Of a DNA stretch of 64,000 nt, positions 4,170 through 63,331 are shown piece after piece. Numbering within the stretch: the first letter of the stretch is position 1; each line of letters starts with the position of its first letter. The position numbers and the translations under genes were made by a program. The notes beneath the pieces were generated by a model. The model was not told the DNA's origin. It made no database searches and saw only the letters and a list, made by a program, of their open reading frames with translations. The stretch is from the NCBI GenBank assembly GCA_016176785.1, contig JACOWN010000004.1:12558-76557 (forward strand), in the 5' to 3' direction. This DNA is from Parcubacteria group bacterium (GTDB lineage: Bacteria; Patescibacteriota; Minisyncoccia; Phycocordibacterales; UBA2135).

Positions 4170-4862
4170 GTGCTCATGTTCTTCGCGACGGGGCATGCTC
4201 GCTCGTGCCCCGGACAACTGTCATGCAGCTGCCCGCGACTGCGCGCAGTCGCGGTCTCGGCGTTTGTTTCGTTCCTTATCTCGTCGCTTGAGATAACGAT
4301 GGGGTTCCATGCCGACAGCTTGGCGCTCGTCGCCGATGCGGCGCACACGTTCTCTGACGGCTTTGCGCACGGCATCACGGCGTATGCGATCATCGCGAGT
4401 TACCGCAATGCCAAGCGCGCGGTTCTTTTTGACCGCCGCGGGCTCTCGGTGAACGCCGTACTCCTCGGATTTTCCGCCGCAGTGATCGCCGTGGAAGCGA
4501 CGCGGCGGTTGTTCTCCCCCTCGCTTGACGTCGCGGGCCTAACGGTGATGACGGTTGCCGGCGCGGCGCTCGTCGGAAACGTATTCCAACACTACTGGCT
4601 CGTGCGCGGCTCGCGGCATTCGGAAGGAAACCACGGCGAGAATACGCTCACCGGCCTCATGAAGCACATCGCCGTCGACATCGCGCAAAGCGCGTTTGTC
4701 GTCGCGGGCGGCATTCTCATCATCGTAACCGGTATCGCGTTAATCGACCCGCTTTTTTCGCTCGTTCTTGTTCTCATCATGCTCTATCAGGTGCGCCGCC
4801 TCTTACAGCGGGCGGGCGGGATGGGACAAAACGGCCATGACCACACTTCAACCCTCTCGTGA
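4170..4862 (+). CDS. Cation diffusion facilitator (CDF) family transporter, membrane domain only.
   Basis: HADSLALVADAAHTFSD motif (TM2 HxxxD metal site) and several hydrophobic helices. At 230 aa it lacks the usual C-terminal cytoplasmic domain. Confidence 0.65.
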   Translation: MLMFFATGHARSCPGQLSCSCPRLRAVAVSAFVSFLISSLEITMGFHADSLALVADAAHTFSDGFAHGITAYAIIASYRNAKRAVLFDRRGLSVNAVLLGFSAAVIAVEATRRLFSPSLDVAGLTVMTVAGAALVGNVFQHYWLVRGSRHSEGNHGENTLTGLMKHIAVDIAQSAFVVAGGILIIVTGIALIDPLFSLVLVLIMLYQVRRLLQRAGGMGQNGHDHTSTLS

Positions 4863-61587: not shown

Positions 61588-61624
61588 ACTATATCTATAA
61601 CTAGCACACGTATAAAAAAGTAAA

Positions 61625-61647
61625 CCCCCACACCTTTTCTCTCATTG
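61625..61647. repeat. Left 23-bp inverted repeat (CCCCCACACCTTTTCTCTCATTG) of an AT-rich islet.
   Basis: It matches the reverse complement of 61920..61942 at 22 of 23 positions. Confidence 0.85.
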
Positions 61648-61903
61648 CAGACTTTCAGTAATTCTTCTTTTGAGTTGCGTTAATGCTTTGCCATCTTTTT
61701 TGAGAGTTGCTTCTCTTTTTCTCGCGTCACCCTCGCTATAAAATGCCTCGTAGTAGCGCAACTCCAGAGGACGCCTTGGTTTTGTGGATGGCACCTCTCC
61801 TCCGTTATGTCCTCTCGGGTCTGCGTCTCAAATCATTGGTGCATCCAATGTAGAGCTTCTCATCTTTTTTACTTTTCAAAATATAAAGATAAAACACCAG
61901 CTT
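61642..61903 (-). pseudogene. GIY-YIG nuclease (UPF0213/YhbQ-like) remnant, frameshifted and lacking a recognisable start codon.
   Basis: Frame 1 gives KLVFYLYILKSKKDEKLYIGCTNDLRRR, then a stop. After skipping one nucleotide the reading continues as PRGHNGGEVPSTKPRRPLELRYYEAFYSEGDARKREATLKKDGKALTQLKRRITESLQ, the typical C-terminal half of the family. No ATG/GTG start codon. Confidence 0.6.
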
Positions 61904-61919
61904 ATTATATGATTTGAGA

Positions 61920-61942
61920 CAATGAGAGGAAAGGTGTGGGGG
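61920..61942. repeat. Right 23-bp inverted repeat (CAATGAGAGGAAAGGTGTGGGGG). It is preceded by a 12-bp inner inverted repeat, ATGATTTGAGAC (61909..61920), which pairs with GTCTCAAATCAT at 61825..61836.
   Basis: Read directly. The outer IRs bracket the GIY-YIG remnant and a sharp local drop in GC content. Confidence 0.85.
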
Positions 61943-61943
61943 T

Positions 61944-61970
61944 AAAAAAAACGCCAGTGGTATCACTGGC
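61944..61970 (-). terminator. Intrinsic terminator on the minus strand for the sat/HAD/61963..62493 operon.
   Basis: On the minus strand: GCCAGTGATACCACTGGCGTTTTTTTT. Confidence 0.65.
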
Positions 61971-62493
61971 GACTTTGGAAAAATGCCGCAGCGGCAATAA
62001 GAGAAGGGCGATGATAGCCCACAAACACTTTCGAGTATTCCGTAAGGACATAGCGCAAGAGACGCGGTTCCCACCATGTACACGCAACATCTTCCTCGTA
62101 CGGTCCATCCGCATACGAAGGATGAAAATTGTTGTCCACTTCCACAAGAAACGTTGGTCCCCGTACTGCCCGACGGTGGAGGACAGCGTCTGTCCAACAA
62201 ATTGGTGGCATGCCAACGACAAGTACGGGAGCTTCGTCGAGATGCGTGCGCACAAGGTCAGCGGGTTTAGCTAACACAAAATCCGCAACCTTGGTTTCTT
62301 CCCTGATGCCGCGTACAAGCGCATCCACCACGGCTTCGTCCGGCTTAACCGTTTCAGCAATACACTCTTCGCGGCCGCCATCATACGGATCGGGCTTATG
62401 AAAGTGGGGGTTACGTGTTTGGGTCATAATCGCAATGTCACCTTCAGAATCCCTTCGGTAGATTACCCCAAAAACAACAAGCTTATAGTCCAT
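61963..62493 (-). CDS. Hypothetical protein, possibly a divergent Nudix-like hydrolase.
   Basis: The start is at MDYKLVVFGVIY. The segment GGREECIAETVKPDEAVVDALVRGIREETKV only loosely resembles a Nudix box. Its start overlaps the HAD-like gene end by 11 nt. Confidence 0.45.
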   Translation of the reverse strand: MDYKLVVFGVIYRRDSEGDIAIMTQTRNPHFHKPDPYDGGREECIAETVKPDEAVVDALVRGIREETKVADFVLAKPADLVRTHLDEAPVLVVGMPPICWTDAVLHRRAVRGPTFLVEVDNNFHPSYADGPYEEDVACTWWEPRLLRYVLTEYSKVFVGYHRPSLIAAAAFFQSRQ

Positions 62494-63331
62494 CACGCGC
62501 CTCCTTTGCAAGCAACGATTCGAGAACAGGCAAGACATGCCTTAAATCGGCTGTTCTGCTCTTGGGGTCAACAAAGTGTATTCTCGCAAGAACGTCGGGG
62601 GACTGTGTCCGCAGAAACGCTTCAAGCGTCTCATTATAGTTAAAGGCAATCCCGTTTCCTCCCGAGGAAGCAACCCCTGCGATGCCGCCGCTGTCTCCCA
62701 TGGTGTCTCCCATGTGGACAACATCACACAGTCCGCACGAAGGAAAGTTTTTTAGAACGTACCGGGCGACAAGATCTGCTTTCGCGCTTTCGTCCACAAT
62801 CCCAAGCTCAACATCTCCCGTCGCTTGAATTCGATCGTATACTTGTGCATAAGCAGCAGGGGGGTCAAAGTAGTCGAAAACCATTTGCCGTAATTCGGCT
62901 TCTTCGAGCACGCAATCTGGCGACCCGTCTTTCCCAAACTTGAGAATGTTTCCAAGGTGGCCGTGTATTGCCGTATCGCCAAGCATCGCCTGGATGGCAT
63001 ATATCGTCACGGAATATCCCGTGGAATTGACGACAAGCGGAACATCATGCGACCGTAGGAATGCAATGAATTCATCAAATCCACTGACAAACCGCATATG
63101 CGTTCGCACATATTCAATCGCCTGGCGAAGCGTAAGCCCCCGCGTAAGCGGGCCGGCTGTGCCGAAGGCCTCTTGCATGGTCGCGGTCCCGCTTGTCTGC
63201 TTCCTGAATACTGCATCGGCTATTCTGAAGTTCTCTCCACTACAAAAGAGCCGAATTATGTCGCTCATTGAGTGCTGATGAATCAATGTGCCGTTCAGAT
63301 CGGACGATACGATAAGGCGCGGCGGTGACAT
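62483..63331 (-). CDS. HAD-superfamily-like hydrolase, atypical.
   Basis: An N-terminal SSDLNGTL motif resembles HAD motif I (DxDGT), but with Asn at the second Asp position; 282 aa. Confidence 0.45.
   Translation of the reverse strand: MSPPRLIVSSDLNGTLIHQHSMSDIIRLFCSGENFRIADAVFRKQTSGTATMQEAFGTAGPLTRGLTLRQAIEYVRTHMRFVSGFDEFIAFLRSHDVPLVVNSTGYSVTIYAIQAMLGDTAIHGHLGNILKFGKDGSPDCVLEEAELRQMVFDYFDPPAAYAQVYDRIQATGDVELGIVDESAKADLVARYVLKNFPSCGLCDVVHMGDTMGDSGGIAGVASSGGNGIAFNYNETLEAFLRTQSPDVLARIHFVDPKSRTADLRHVLPVLESLLAKEARDGL

Follow-up and report, generated by a model that had tools for sequence, protein, structure and literature searches.

A probable dead copy of a compact GIY-YIG nuclease insertion element next to cysC in a Parcubacteria genome

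An AT-rich islet between an operon terminator and cysC

The DNA analyzed here, called the window, is a 64-kb stretch of contig JACOWN010000004.1 from a Parcubacteria group bacterium. Toward its end, a sat-HAD-NUDIX operon and its terminator are followed by an AT-rich islet of 318 bp (61625 to 61942) and then by cysC. The islet, which was read with its borders on the minus strand (61975 to 61590), carries a GIY-YIG nuclease gene between inverted repeats. Its G+C content of 42.8%, compared with 55.7% for the window, is in the lowest 0.2% of 320-nt windows. A preliminary description, made from the letters alone, had proposed a compositionally foreign, decayed mobile unit inserted between the operon terminator and cysC. 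Composition and position were both borne out, and the mobile nature is supported by a repeat that is family-wide, by homology that ends at that repeat, by flanking 4-bp duplications, and by the frameshift in the gene. We consider it about 70% probable that the islet is a dead copy of a compact, ~317-bp insertion element that is common in Patescibacteria. The window member is recently disabled: its nuclease gene is broken, and its cis-acting sites, both helices and the TATAAT box, are intact. The family of insertion-sequence-like GIY-YIG elements to which it belongs is previously undescribed, and our literature search found no paper describing these units of the candidate phyla radiation (CPR). 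The family-level architecture is the result of interest.

The unit consists of the canonical 317 bp of the family and one inserted base. A repeat finder returned terminal inverted-repeat arms of 24 nt that are 96% complementary (61624 to 61647 and 61920 to 61943). The outermost A/T pair of these arms is part of a 4-bp target duplication and lies outside the element, leaving the 23-nt inverted ends that had been recognized before; within them, the G-rich arm (G-arm) and the C-rich arm (C-arm) differ from complementarity by a single C·A mismatch. The same program found a perfect 12-bp inner inverted repeat (61825 to 61836 and 61909 to 61920), whose upstream strand, GTCTCAAATCAT, shares one base with the C-arm. 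The 23-mer arm has two sites only in the 64-kb window, both at the element, where the chance expectation is 0. The coordinates of all features are collected in Table 1.

The insertion spot is the T-tract 3' of the terminator of the sat-HAD-NUDIX operon, upstream of cysC. The terminator hairpin (61971 to 61952), which contains the stop codon of the NUDIX-like open reading frame (61963 to 62538) and precedes a T8 run, is distinct from the repeat of the element and lies outside it. On the gene strand, the G-arm is followed by TTTA, a T-rich spacer, and the cysC ATG (61587). Removal of the element and one TTTA copy leaves an uninterrupted T-rich terminator tail, ..CACTGGCGTTTTTTTTACTTTTTTATACG.. 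on the gene strand. If the islet is an inserted element, the empty site would have read ..TTTTTTTTA joined straight to CTTTTTTAT...

Table 1. Features of the islet and its borders (window coordinates)
Feature	Coordinates	Strand	Remarks
Whole element	61625..61942	-	Delimited by the end of blastn homology, the inverted-repeat register, and flanking 4-bp duplications
Target-site duplication, copy 1	61943..61946		TAAA on the plus strand, TTTA on the gene strand
Target-site duplication, copy 2	61621..61624		TAAA on the plus strand
5' terminal inverted repeat (C-arm)	61920..61942	-	CCCCCACACCTTTCCTCTCATTG; outer part CCCCCACACC kept in ~60 loci
3' terminal inverted repeat (G-arm)	61625..61647	-	CAATGAGAGAAAAGGTGTGGGGG; covers the last two codons and the stop
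Inner helix, 5' strand	61909..61920	-	GTCTCAAATCAT; in the leader, directly upstream of the -10 box; 12/12 complementary
Inner helix, 3' strand	61825..61836	-	ATGATTTGAGAC; codons for N21-D-L-R-R25
TATAAT box, presumed -10	61904..61909	-	6 nt upstream of the start codon; read from the sequence
GTG start codon	61895..61897	-	Aligned with family Met1
N-terminal reading frame	61805..61897	-	MFYLYILKSKKDEKLYIGCTNDLRRRPERT, 30 codons; premature TAA at 61807-61805; residues 1 to 23, 91% identity (tblastn)
Frameshift zone	61808..61819	-	CCCGAGAGGACA; extra base and ~5 substitutions relative to the consensus CTTTCAGAACA
C-terminal reading frame (+1)	61642..61809	-	HNGGEVPSTKPRRPLELRYYEAFYSEGDARKREATLKKDGKALTQLKRRITESLQ; TGA at 61644-61642; residues 30 to 84, 78% identity (tblastn)
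Intrinsic terminator of the NUDIX-like gene	61944..61971	-	CGCCAGTG-ATAC-CACTGGCG and T8; belongs to the host, marks the insertion site

A family of elements with common ends

More than 547 homologous loci were found when one genome per species was scanned, and 80 of them were kept; loci are given L numbers and proteins P numbers below. The pairing of arms was tested at the 72 testable loci from other genomes, and the helices were aligned in 31 elements including that of the window (alignment A2). Intact homologues of 84 amino acids number in the hundreds, are up to 81% identical to the frame-corrected window protein, and, when named by source, come almost always from Patescibacteria (CPR) lineages. 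A profile search against 1.84 billion representatives gave 16,542 clusters at E values of ≤1e-3 and 3,039 at ≤1e-10. No relatives were found in the viral contigs searched.

The ends are a property of the whole family. In ~60 of the 72 loci, (A)CCCCCACACC(T/A)… precedes the gene as the upstream arm and …GGTGTGGGGG(T) follows it as the downstream arm, which begins at or over the stop codon. The arms aligned with scores of 14 to 24, compared with a shuffle maximum of 8 to 13. Variant arms change in concert, as seen in the pairs CACCCACACCTAT/ATAGGTGTGGGTG, GCGCACACACC/GGTGTGTGCGC, and GCCCCTCACC/GGTGAGGGGC. When loci from different genomes were compared by blastn, the element alone aligned, edge to edge, ending at the arms. 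Thus, L010 and L013 both align over 2455 to 2772 (89% identity), L005 and L021 likewise align edge to edge, and the alignment of the window with L004 (78% identity) covers the element, its ends falling at most 4 nt from the element boundary.

The 80 loci represent at least 50 unrelated neighbor-gene contexts, and the size of the element is constant, 317 to 319 bp, in very diverse genomes. Several copies can occur per genome: L027 and L041 are on one contig, second copies lie within L051, L052, and L073, and mini-elements are found beside full elements. The G+C content of the elements tracks that of the host (r = 0.65), yet is lower, as expected for long residence. The family has the features by which insertion sequences and miniature inverted-repeat transposable elements (MITEs) are recognized, namely, inverted repeats that define the ends, a duplication of fixed length, and multiple copies in unrelated contexts. 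It lacks a transposase of a recognized catalytic class; the GIY-YIG nuclease is the only reading frame.

Target duplications and insertion sites

The C5 and G5 runs served as anchors, the element being taken to start with the first C of the former and to end with the last G of the latter. With this boundary, 31 of 57 elements, namely, the window copy and 30 of 56 others, were flanked directly by an exact 4-bp repeat, compared with 2.4 on average and 9 at most in 5,000 shuffles of the pairings. Moving the boundary by 1 nt left 0 to 1 matches, showing that the duplication signal is register specific. Among the remaining 26 elements, several are still misanchored or differ by one base. The duplicated tetramers are mainly A/T rich (TTTA, TTAT, TAAA, ATAA, and others), the window copy having TTTA at each side on the gene strand. 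The base before the tetramer was G in 19 of the 31 cases and the base after it was C in 18, giving an approximate target of G-NNNN-C. In a first pass, direct repeats as long as 14 nt had been seen to straddle the ends of 46% of elements, versus 4.4% of mismatched pairings. Duplications of variable length (9 to 14 nt) were considered on that basis and rejected, as re-anchoring resolved them into a constant 4 bp and target sequence that resembles the element's own C-arm.

Many copies adjoin RNA genes or terminators. A tRNA-His gene adjoins the element in six genomes, on the C-arm side in three and on the G-arm side in three, with differing flanking genes. These copies lie between …TAGG or …TAAG and C(A/C)CCCA, and the tRNA gene stays whole because the terminus of the element (CACCCA or CCCCCA) reproduces the displaced discriminator and CCA. 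Other copies adjoin the 3' ends of tRNA-Gly, tRNA-Ile, and tRNA-Phe genes and the 5' ends of tRNA-Ala genes (ARAGORN, Rfam), lie in tRNA arrays (L051 and L073), or follow terminator hairpins (the window, L013, and L068). A family member in a Uhrbacteria genome (L069, 1795 to 3170) lies within the 23S rRNA gene, in helix 25. Its reading frame passes the G-arm into rRNA sequence to give 98 amino acids, and no 4-bp duplication is visible.

Some of these loci had further features. The tRNA arrays of L073 (1936 to 2844) and L051 (1741 to 2834) each contain two divergent GIY-YIG copies, and in L051 a 47-nt gene-less hairpin stands right on the 3' end of tRNA-Phe. In L029 (800 to 1080), the tRNA-His 3' end (CCCTGTAGGCACCC) is present three times in ~450 nt: the gene's own end, one 150 nt downstream and left of the element, and one right of the element. 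The arrangement suggests successive insertions at one site. A perfect DnaA-box 9-mer, TTATCCACA, adjoins 11 elements in at least nine gene contexts (L011, L026, L027, L028 [a mini-element], L032, L034, L035, L039, L043, L054, and L055). Perfect DnaA boxes numbered 37 in all loci, compared with ~5 expected, and the TTAT/ATAA duplication lies inside the box. A replication origin was considered and rejected; the perfect boxes are single and their contexts differ, which argues for a favored target.

Gene-less forms

The MITE-like aspect that had been proposed for the islet was supported at the level of the family, as gene-less miniature versions were found. At least 12 arm pairs without a gene, 30 to 140 nt in length, are present in the flanks within ~360 kb of other loci. 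Hairpins of 30 to 50 nt occur in L064, L058, L051, L038, and L081, and units of 65 to 140 nt occur in L045, L028, L071, and L079, with three in tandem in L011. The arms of the L045 mini-element are those of the full element. In L049 (2816 to 2922), an inverted repeat of the same style (CCGCACCAAAAATA… and …TTTTGGTGCGG) surrounds a tRNA-Asp gene (2831 to 2906) and no nuclease gene.

Gene-less versions, and an arm pair holding a tRNA gene in place of the nuclease gene, would also be expected if the units were MITEs moved by an unrelated transposase that reads the terminal repeats, with the GIY-YIG gene as a passenger. Terminal repeats with a fixed 4-bp duplication are, moreover, typical of DDE transposases such as those of the IS5, IS701, and IS1380 groups. 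However, the gene, the promoter box, the stop codon in the arm, and the inner helix in the coding sequence form an integrated unit of constant size, and a passenger is not expected to coevolve with the ends. No transposase gene recurs beside the loci in their 50 or more unrelated contexts, and the Ssn proteins described below show that a small GIY-YIG enzyme can be paired with flanking repeats of its own (PMC11893778). We regard the passenger explanation as having about one-tenth of the weight that a certainty would carry, that is, as unlikely.

Two covarying helices

The preliminary description had noted that the 12-bp inner repeat pairs the leader with the codons for an NDLRR motif. The pairing is complete (12 of 12) and is no accident, since it belongs to a conserved, covarying helix. 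In the subfamily of the window element, the 12-nt stretch that separates the C-arm from TATAAT is complementary to the codons for N21-D-L-R/K-R25, and the pairing is kept across at least eight sequence versions, for example, GTCGTAAATCAT/ATGATTTACGAC, GCTTCAGATCAT/ATGATCTGAAGC, and CCTTAGATTAT/ATAATCTAAGG. Changes in the leader mirror synonymous and R/K codon changes in other copies. Cognate inner pairs of at least 10 nt were found in 28 of 79 loci, compared with 2.4% of non-cognate pairs. For both helices across the 31 elements, 90.9% of the cells were paired, compared with 38 to 52% when the partner columns were slid. Changes on both sides were seen in 21 of 35 pairs (14 of 23 outer and 7 of 12 inner), and none of 500 shuffles matched the observed values on any of five measures. 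Folded as DNA, either strand of the window element stacks both helices into a stem of ~35 bp (z = -6.4 and -7.2).

The imperfect pairs bear on whether these helices act in RNA or in DNA. On the gene strand, G·T pairs numbered 15 versus 24 A·C pairs in the outer helix and 7 versus 14 in the inner helix. G·U is in no excess on the gene strand, and the opposite strand shows only a weak trend; the asymmetry is not decisive. A role in DNA is favored, either as folded single strands or through simple identity of the ends, because G·U is not enriched on the gene strand as an RNA helix should show. Rfam searches, at a permissive threshold for the region, gave chance-level matches only, and in all 80 loci they detected only tRNAs, one 23S rRNA, and one unrelated small RNA.

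A reading at the RNA level would make the unit a resident, domesticated host gene with no present-day mobility, whose flanking and internal complementarity processes, stabilizes, or silences its transcript. Models for such behavior exist in hok-type fold-back, in the RNase III stalks at rRNA intervening sequences, and in the IS10/IS50-style block of translation from read-through transcripts. That the helices covary, that the protein is under strong purifying selection, and that copies are fixed at one locus within populations all agree with this explanation, and copies beside tRNAs and in 23S helix 25 would require removal at the RNA level (PMC11270868). However, with a leaderless mRNA from the internal promoter described below, the 5' strands of both helices, lying upstream of TATAAT and the start codon, would be absent from the element's own mRNA, and G·U is not favored over A·C on the gene strand. 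The 4-bp repeats, the arm-bounded homology in at least 50 contexts, and the gene-less hairpins of 30 to 50 nt would also be left unexplained. We therefore think a purely RNA-level function improbable, if somewhat less so than the passenger explanation. It could also be a secondary role and not an alternative at all: in read-through transcripts, the helices might possibly permit removal of the element from tRNA or 23S precursors or, by analogy with IS10 and IS50, block activation from outside.

The nuclease gene and its frameshift

When one base is removed, the gene encodes 84 amino acids. The profile search of this corrected product that had been advised gave PF01541 at an E value of 6.3e-15 (55.7 bits, cutoff of 22.6), the match covering profile positions 1 to 74 of 78 across both frame parts. 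An overlapping match to T5orf172 was weak (16.9 bits, below the cutoff of 20), and GIY-YIG is the sole domain above the Pfam cutoff. In a 40-sequence alignment that includes the corrected window protein, the catalytic residues Y3/Y5, Y16, G18, R26, H30, and E62 are invariant, and N31, which the window protein retains, is nearly so. By tblastn, residues 1 to 23 map to 61897-61829 and residues 30 to 84 map to 61809-61645. The median pairwise ratio of nonsynonymous to synonymous substitution (dN/dS) among intact family genes is 0.14, which indicates that the protein is maintained by purifying selection.

The gene had been described as lacking a canonical start codon, and this did not hold. GTG at 61897-61895 aligns with the family Met1 and is also used by the intact homologues L009 and L020, so the supposedly missing start is no defect. 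Most of the 31 aligned elements have TATAAT or TAnnnT at 6 to 8 nt upstream of the start codon, and Shine-Dalgarno sequences are absent. This arrangement suggests an internal promoter and a leaderless mRNA. A generic promoter scan did not report the TATAAT box at 61904 to 61909, and its -35 region is weak.

The reading frame of the window copy is not intact, as a 1-base insertion leads to TAA after codon 30. The extra base is column 147 of alignment A2, which the window sequence alone fills among the 31 elements; the 1-nt frameshift reported on the minus strand is thus an insertion relative to 30 homologous elements. The nine bases around it carry ~5 differences from the family consensus. The identical sequence, base for base, was recovered in the independent read-set assemblies SRR12113431, SRR12113385, and SRR12113384, and the frameshift-zone sequence is the same in L001 to L003. 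The frameshift is real. Programmed +1 frameshifting was weighed as well, but CCC-GAG-AGG-ACA-TAA offers no slippery or re-pairing codon and 30 of 30 aligned homologues are in frame, and the idea was rejected.

The preliminary description had named, as the refuting alternative, an ordinary intact gene whose frameshift is a sequencing error. In this explanation, the frameshift would be a sequencing or assembly error and the repeat would be part of the neighboring terminator. A single base is involved, and all assemblies derive from short reads of related samples. Nevertheless, an error would have to recur identically in three further independent assemblies and to fall within a stretch that carries ~5 other substitutions, and the repeat is family-wide and separate from the terminator hairpin. 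The deposited genome lists cysC as MBI1999157 and the following protein as MBI1999159, with no accession between them that fits the GIY-YIG gene; the gene is apparently unannotated as a protein there. We give this explanation almost no weight.

Many proteins of 210 to 480 amino acids (e.g., P0261, P0271, P0281, and P0351) match the family over their first ~80 residues only. They may represent read-through out of an element or genuine domain fusions.

Relation to known systems

The closest known system is the Ssn/NTS family, going by its description in the Results and Discussion of Chenal et al. (2025, Nat Commun, PMC11893778). Neisseria meningitidis SsnA is a 94-amino-acid, single-domain GIY-YIG protein; it cleaves single-stranded DNA immediately upstream of the NTS hairpin, to which it binds, and it is active even when the hairpin is divided over two oligonucleotides (PMC11893778). 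The ssnA gene is flanked by NTS repeats, a layout that the authors liken to an insertion sequence, and in CDD the family is cd10448 GIY-YIG_unchar_3 (PMC11893778). Both the CPR and the Ssn proteins are single-domain GIY-YIG proteins of fewer than 100 amino acids (84 in the CPR family, ~90 to 100 in Ssn). In both systems, cognate, G+C-rich complementary sequences stand on either side of the gene, and free copies of the repeat occur as short hairpins. The short gene-less hairpins of the CPR family resemble REP or NTS repeats more than conventional MITEs.

The arrangement of the repeats differs. Ssn genes have at least one complete local, CGTC-tagged hairpin per side, whereas the CPR elements have half of one long-range inverted repeat per side, so that the gene sits within the "loop." Further features set the CPR elements apart: their ends are defined, 4-bp duplications flank them, their size is constant at ~317 bp, an internal TATAAT box precedes a leaderless start, and a second covarying helix extends into the coding sequence. 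The Results and Discussion of Chenal et al. mention none of these features, and a term search of the text found no mention of CPR lineages (PMC11893778).

The published SRM pattern, HGTCWYN(0-2)YYVSBRHN(0-5)WNVSBRGN(0-2)RNCYNB, was used to compare the repeats themselves. As a control, it recovered the published NTS and the four repeats around an Azospirillum gene. This gene (L103, 540 to 1120; Azospirillum lipoferum 4B plasmid AZO_p3) encodes a 97-amino-acid Ssn-type protein between sufB and sufC and is flanked by two and two inverted CGTC-tagged copies of CGTCATCCCCGCGAAGGCGGGGATCCAG. The pattern had no site in the window and was absent near 79 of the 80 CPR genes, whose flanks are cognate complementary sequences of another sequence class and arrangement than SRM.

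The designation "UPF0213-like," used earlier for the protein, is approximate only. The best matches among solved structures are indeed UPF0213 proteins (Escherichia coli YhbQ and Bacillus subtilis YazA; PDB 1zg2 and 1ywl; E values of 3e-8 and 2e-6), which are of similar size and ~42% identical. However, the family is about equally far from the YazA/UPF0213 and the Ssn types. A CPR profile scored Ssn-type proteins with a median of 48.7 bits and YazA/UPF0213 proteins with 43 bits; a profile of Ssn-type proteins, built from relatives of the SRM-flanked Azospirillum gene, scored CPR proteins with a median of 46 bits and UPF0213 proteins with 35 bits. The CPR proteins are homologous to those of the Ssn type, with 37% identity to the SRM-flanked Azospirillum protein. 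On these scores, the CPR group appears to be a distinct subfamily, about equidistant from both types. The genetic settings differ as well, as YazA-type genes occupy a conserved housekeeping operon, trmNF-yazA-rsmI, with overlapping frames, whereas the CPR genes lie between inverted repeats in at least 50 contexts.

A likeness to REP/REPIN-RAYT systems and IS200/IS605 elements is evident in layout: a short palindromic repeat stands in inverted copies around one small nuclease gene and occurs without the gene as hairpins or doublets, persistence at one locus is mostly vertical and long term, and dependence on folded single-stranded DNA is expected. The enzymes are different, RAYT and IS200/IS605 using an HUH tyrosine (Y1) transposase with a covalent DNA intermediate and the CPR elements encoding a GIY-YIG hydrolase. 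Also, neither the REP/RAYT systems nor IS200/IS605 elements duplicate the target, and the hairpins of IS200/IS605 are subterminal, in place of terminal inverted repeats. Classical insertion sequences and MITEs share with the CPR units the terminal repeats, a duplication of fixed length, many contexts, and miniature derivatives, and insertion sequences share a promoter that lies partly within the terminal repeat. The smallest insertion sequences are ~0.7 kb (IS200), and the ~317-bp element is less than half that size. We know of no described insertion-sequence family that uses a GIY-YIG protein, the known enzymes being of the DDE, DEDD, HUH, serine, and tyrosine types.

GIY-YIG is a classical homing-endonuclease fold, and the islet had been compared to a homing-endonuclease cassette. 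A free-standing homing endonuclease gene would spread by cutting empty alleles and by recombinational repair, and the repeats would then be incidental. There were weak matches to TIGR01453, a model of group I intron endonucleases, and to I-TevI in PDB, and a study of CPR rRNA genes reported GIY-YIG reading frames within insertions that are not introns (Tsurumaki et al. 2024, PMC11270868). The classical type of homing endonuclease is nevertheless ruled out by the small size of the protein (84 amino acids), the absence of a DNA-binding domain, and the terminal repeats with target duplications. The scores against TIGR01453 were 26.8 bits for P0001 and 15.6 bits for the window protein, compared with a cutoff of 56, and involved profile positions 4 to 34 only. 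Homing does not make terminal inverted repeats, 4-bp duplications, or gene-less hairpins, and the insertion sites of the family are many and poorly conserved. Taken as a whole, homing is a very improbable explanation.

The 23S rRNA member L069 is an insertion of exactly this kind, and its position in helix 25, a known site of RNase III-processed intervening sequences, ties the family to the non-intron GIY-YIG insertions (PMC11270868). That study described no inverted repeats, target duplications, or occurrence outside rRNA genes (PMC11270868).

Proposed mobility and mechanism

We infer the mobility of these units, and their mode of movement, from comparative anatomy. An intact element has the order C-rich repeat CCCCCACACC…, leader with TATAAT, 84-codon GIY-YIG gene, and G-rich repeat …GGTGTGGGGG. 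Insertion would duplicate 4 bp of a target approximating G-NNNN-C and often A/T rich. Sites at the 3' edges of transcription units, such as terminator tails and tRNA 3' ends, would be favored, with 23S helix 25 as a single further case. The window copy would have landed in the terminator T-tract and later gained the extra base by which its nuclease is cut short after 30 codons. The presumed mobilizing enzyme is the nuclease that the element encodes. By analogy with Ssn, it might recognize, in single-stranded DNA, the helix formed by the paired ends, or by one end and an arm-like target, and it may cut at the base of the paired-end helix. Movement is apparently slow, as the copies are fixed at one locus within the sampled populations.

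A more far-reaching form of this proposal is that the ~317-bp units are autonomous transposable elements, with the 84-residue GIY-YIG nuclease as their only protein and with target choice guided by the G-arm. The G-rich arm would pair with C-rich, arm-like single-stranded targets, for example, the tRNA-His 3' end (C73-CCA), so that the nuclease would see the same helix as at its own ends, and the terminus of the element would rebuild the displaced tRNA end. We hold this extended proposal to be tentative and rather less probable than its opposite.

Several observations weigh against a mobile element. No further copies of the 23-bp arm were found elsewhere in the 64-kb window. The search for empty-site alleles in relatives, made by a metagenome scan with cysC that gave one usable relative, found none; that relative, L084, is only moderately close (cysC 67% identical) and is also without the two neighboring genes. 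The identical proteins P0001, P0067, and P0118 each occur at one locus over 14 to 24 contigs from many samples and so give no sign of recent movement, and the most similar copies at different places are 85 to 89% identical. The repeats show the published Ssn motif at no site in the window and in 1 of 80 loci, and on cross-profile scores the family is not demonstrably within the Ssn clade. To our knowledge, GIY-YIG enzymes are hydrolases for which no strand-transfer chemistry is known; with such chemistry, and with 84 amino acids and no obvious DNA-binding domain, autonomy is putative. The 4-bp duplication suggests a double-stranded target with staggered cuts, which fits poorly with a purely single-strand mechanism. 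Staggered cuts and rejoining by an 84-residue hydrolase may require host repair or a partner enzyme.

If the units are mobilized by their 84-residue nuclease, the Ssn principle would be extended to a true insertion element with ends and target duplications. The bacterial transposons would gain a new catalytic class, and the lower size limit of autonomous mobile DNA would move down; the units may be the smallest self-contained mobile element type known and, if autonomous, would be the first class of GIY-YIG-driven transposons with terminal repeats and target duplication. The abundance of "GIY-YIG nuclease family proteins" annotated in CPR genomes would be explained, as would the nature of the non-intron GIY-YIG rRNA insertions and the way in which tRNA and rRNA genes tolerate insertions. 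Arm variants that covary with their proteins would be a panel of enzyme-site pairs for single-stranded DNA tools. The signature CCCCCACACC…GGTGTGGGGG, ~317 bp apart and flanked by 4-bp repeats, could serve for automatic recognition of the units and of their pseudogenes.

Other observations

Two other low-GC spots in the window were considered and rejected: the one at ~20.6 kb is the 5' end of rpoB, and the one at ~56.4 kb is ordinary intergenic sequence that includes a gene end. In L074, a DUF3800-II RNA motif (4734 to 4797) lies 2 kb from the family member and is probably unrelated to the element.

The relative L084 (1 to 2213, compared with window positions 61963 to 63331) has sat followed directly by cysC. 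The gap between them is 31 nt to the longest cysC open reading frame and ~70 nt to the cysC-homologous region. In the window, a HAD-like gene, a NUDIX-like gene, and the element lie between sat and cysC; because L084 has cysC directly after sat, the whole 2.3-kb stretch of the window may be a later addition.

The only promoter-like match of the region (TTTATA-17-TATAGT) is at 61588 to 61616 and ends right before the cysC ATG. No Shine-Dalgarno sequence is visible for cysC, and its transcript may be leaderless or have a very short leader.

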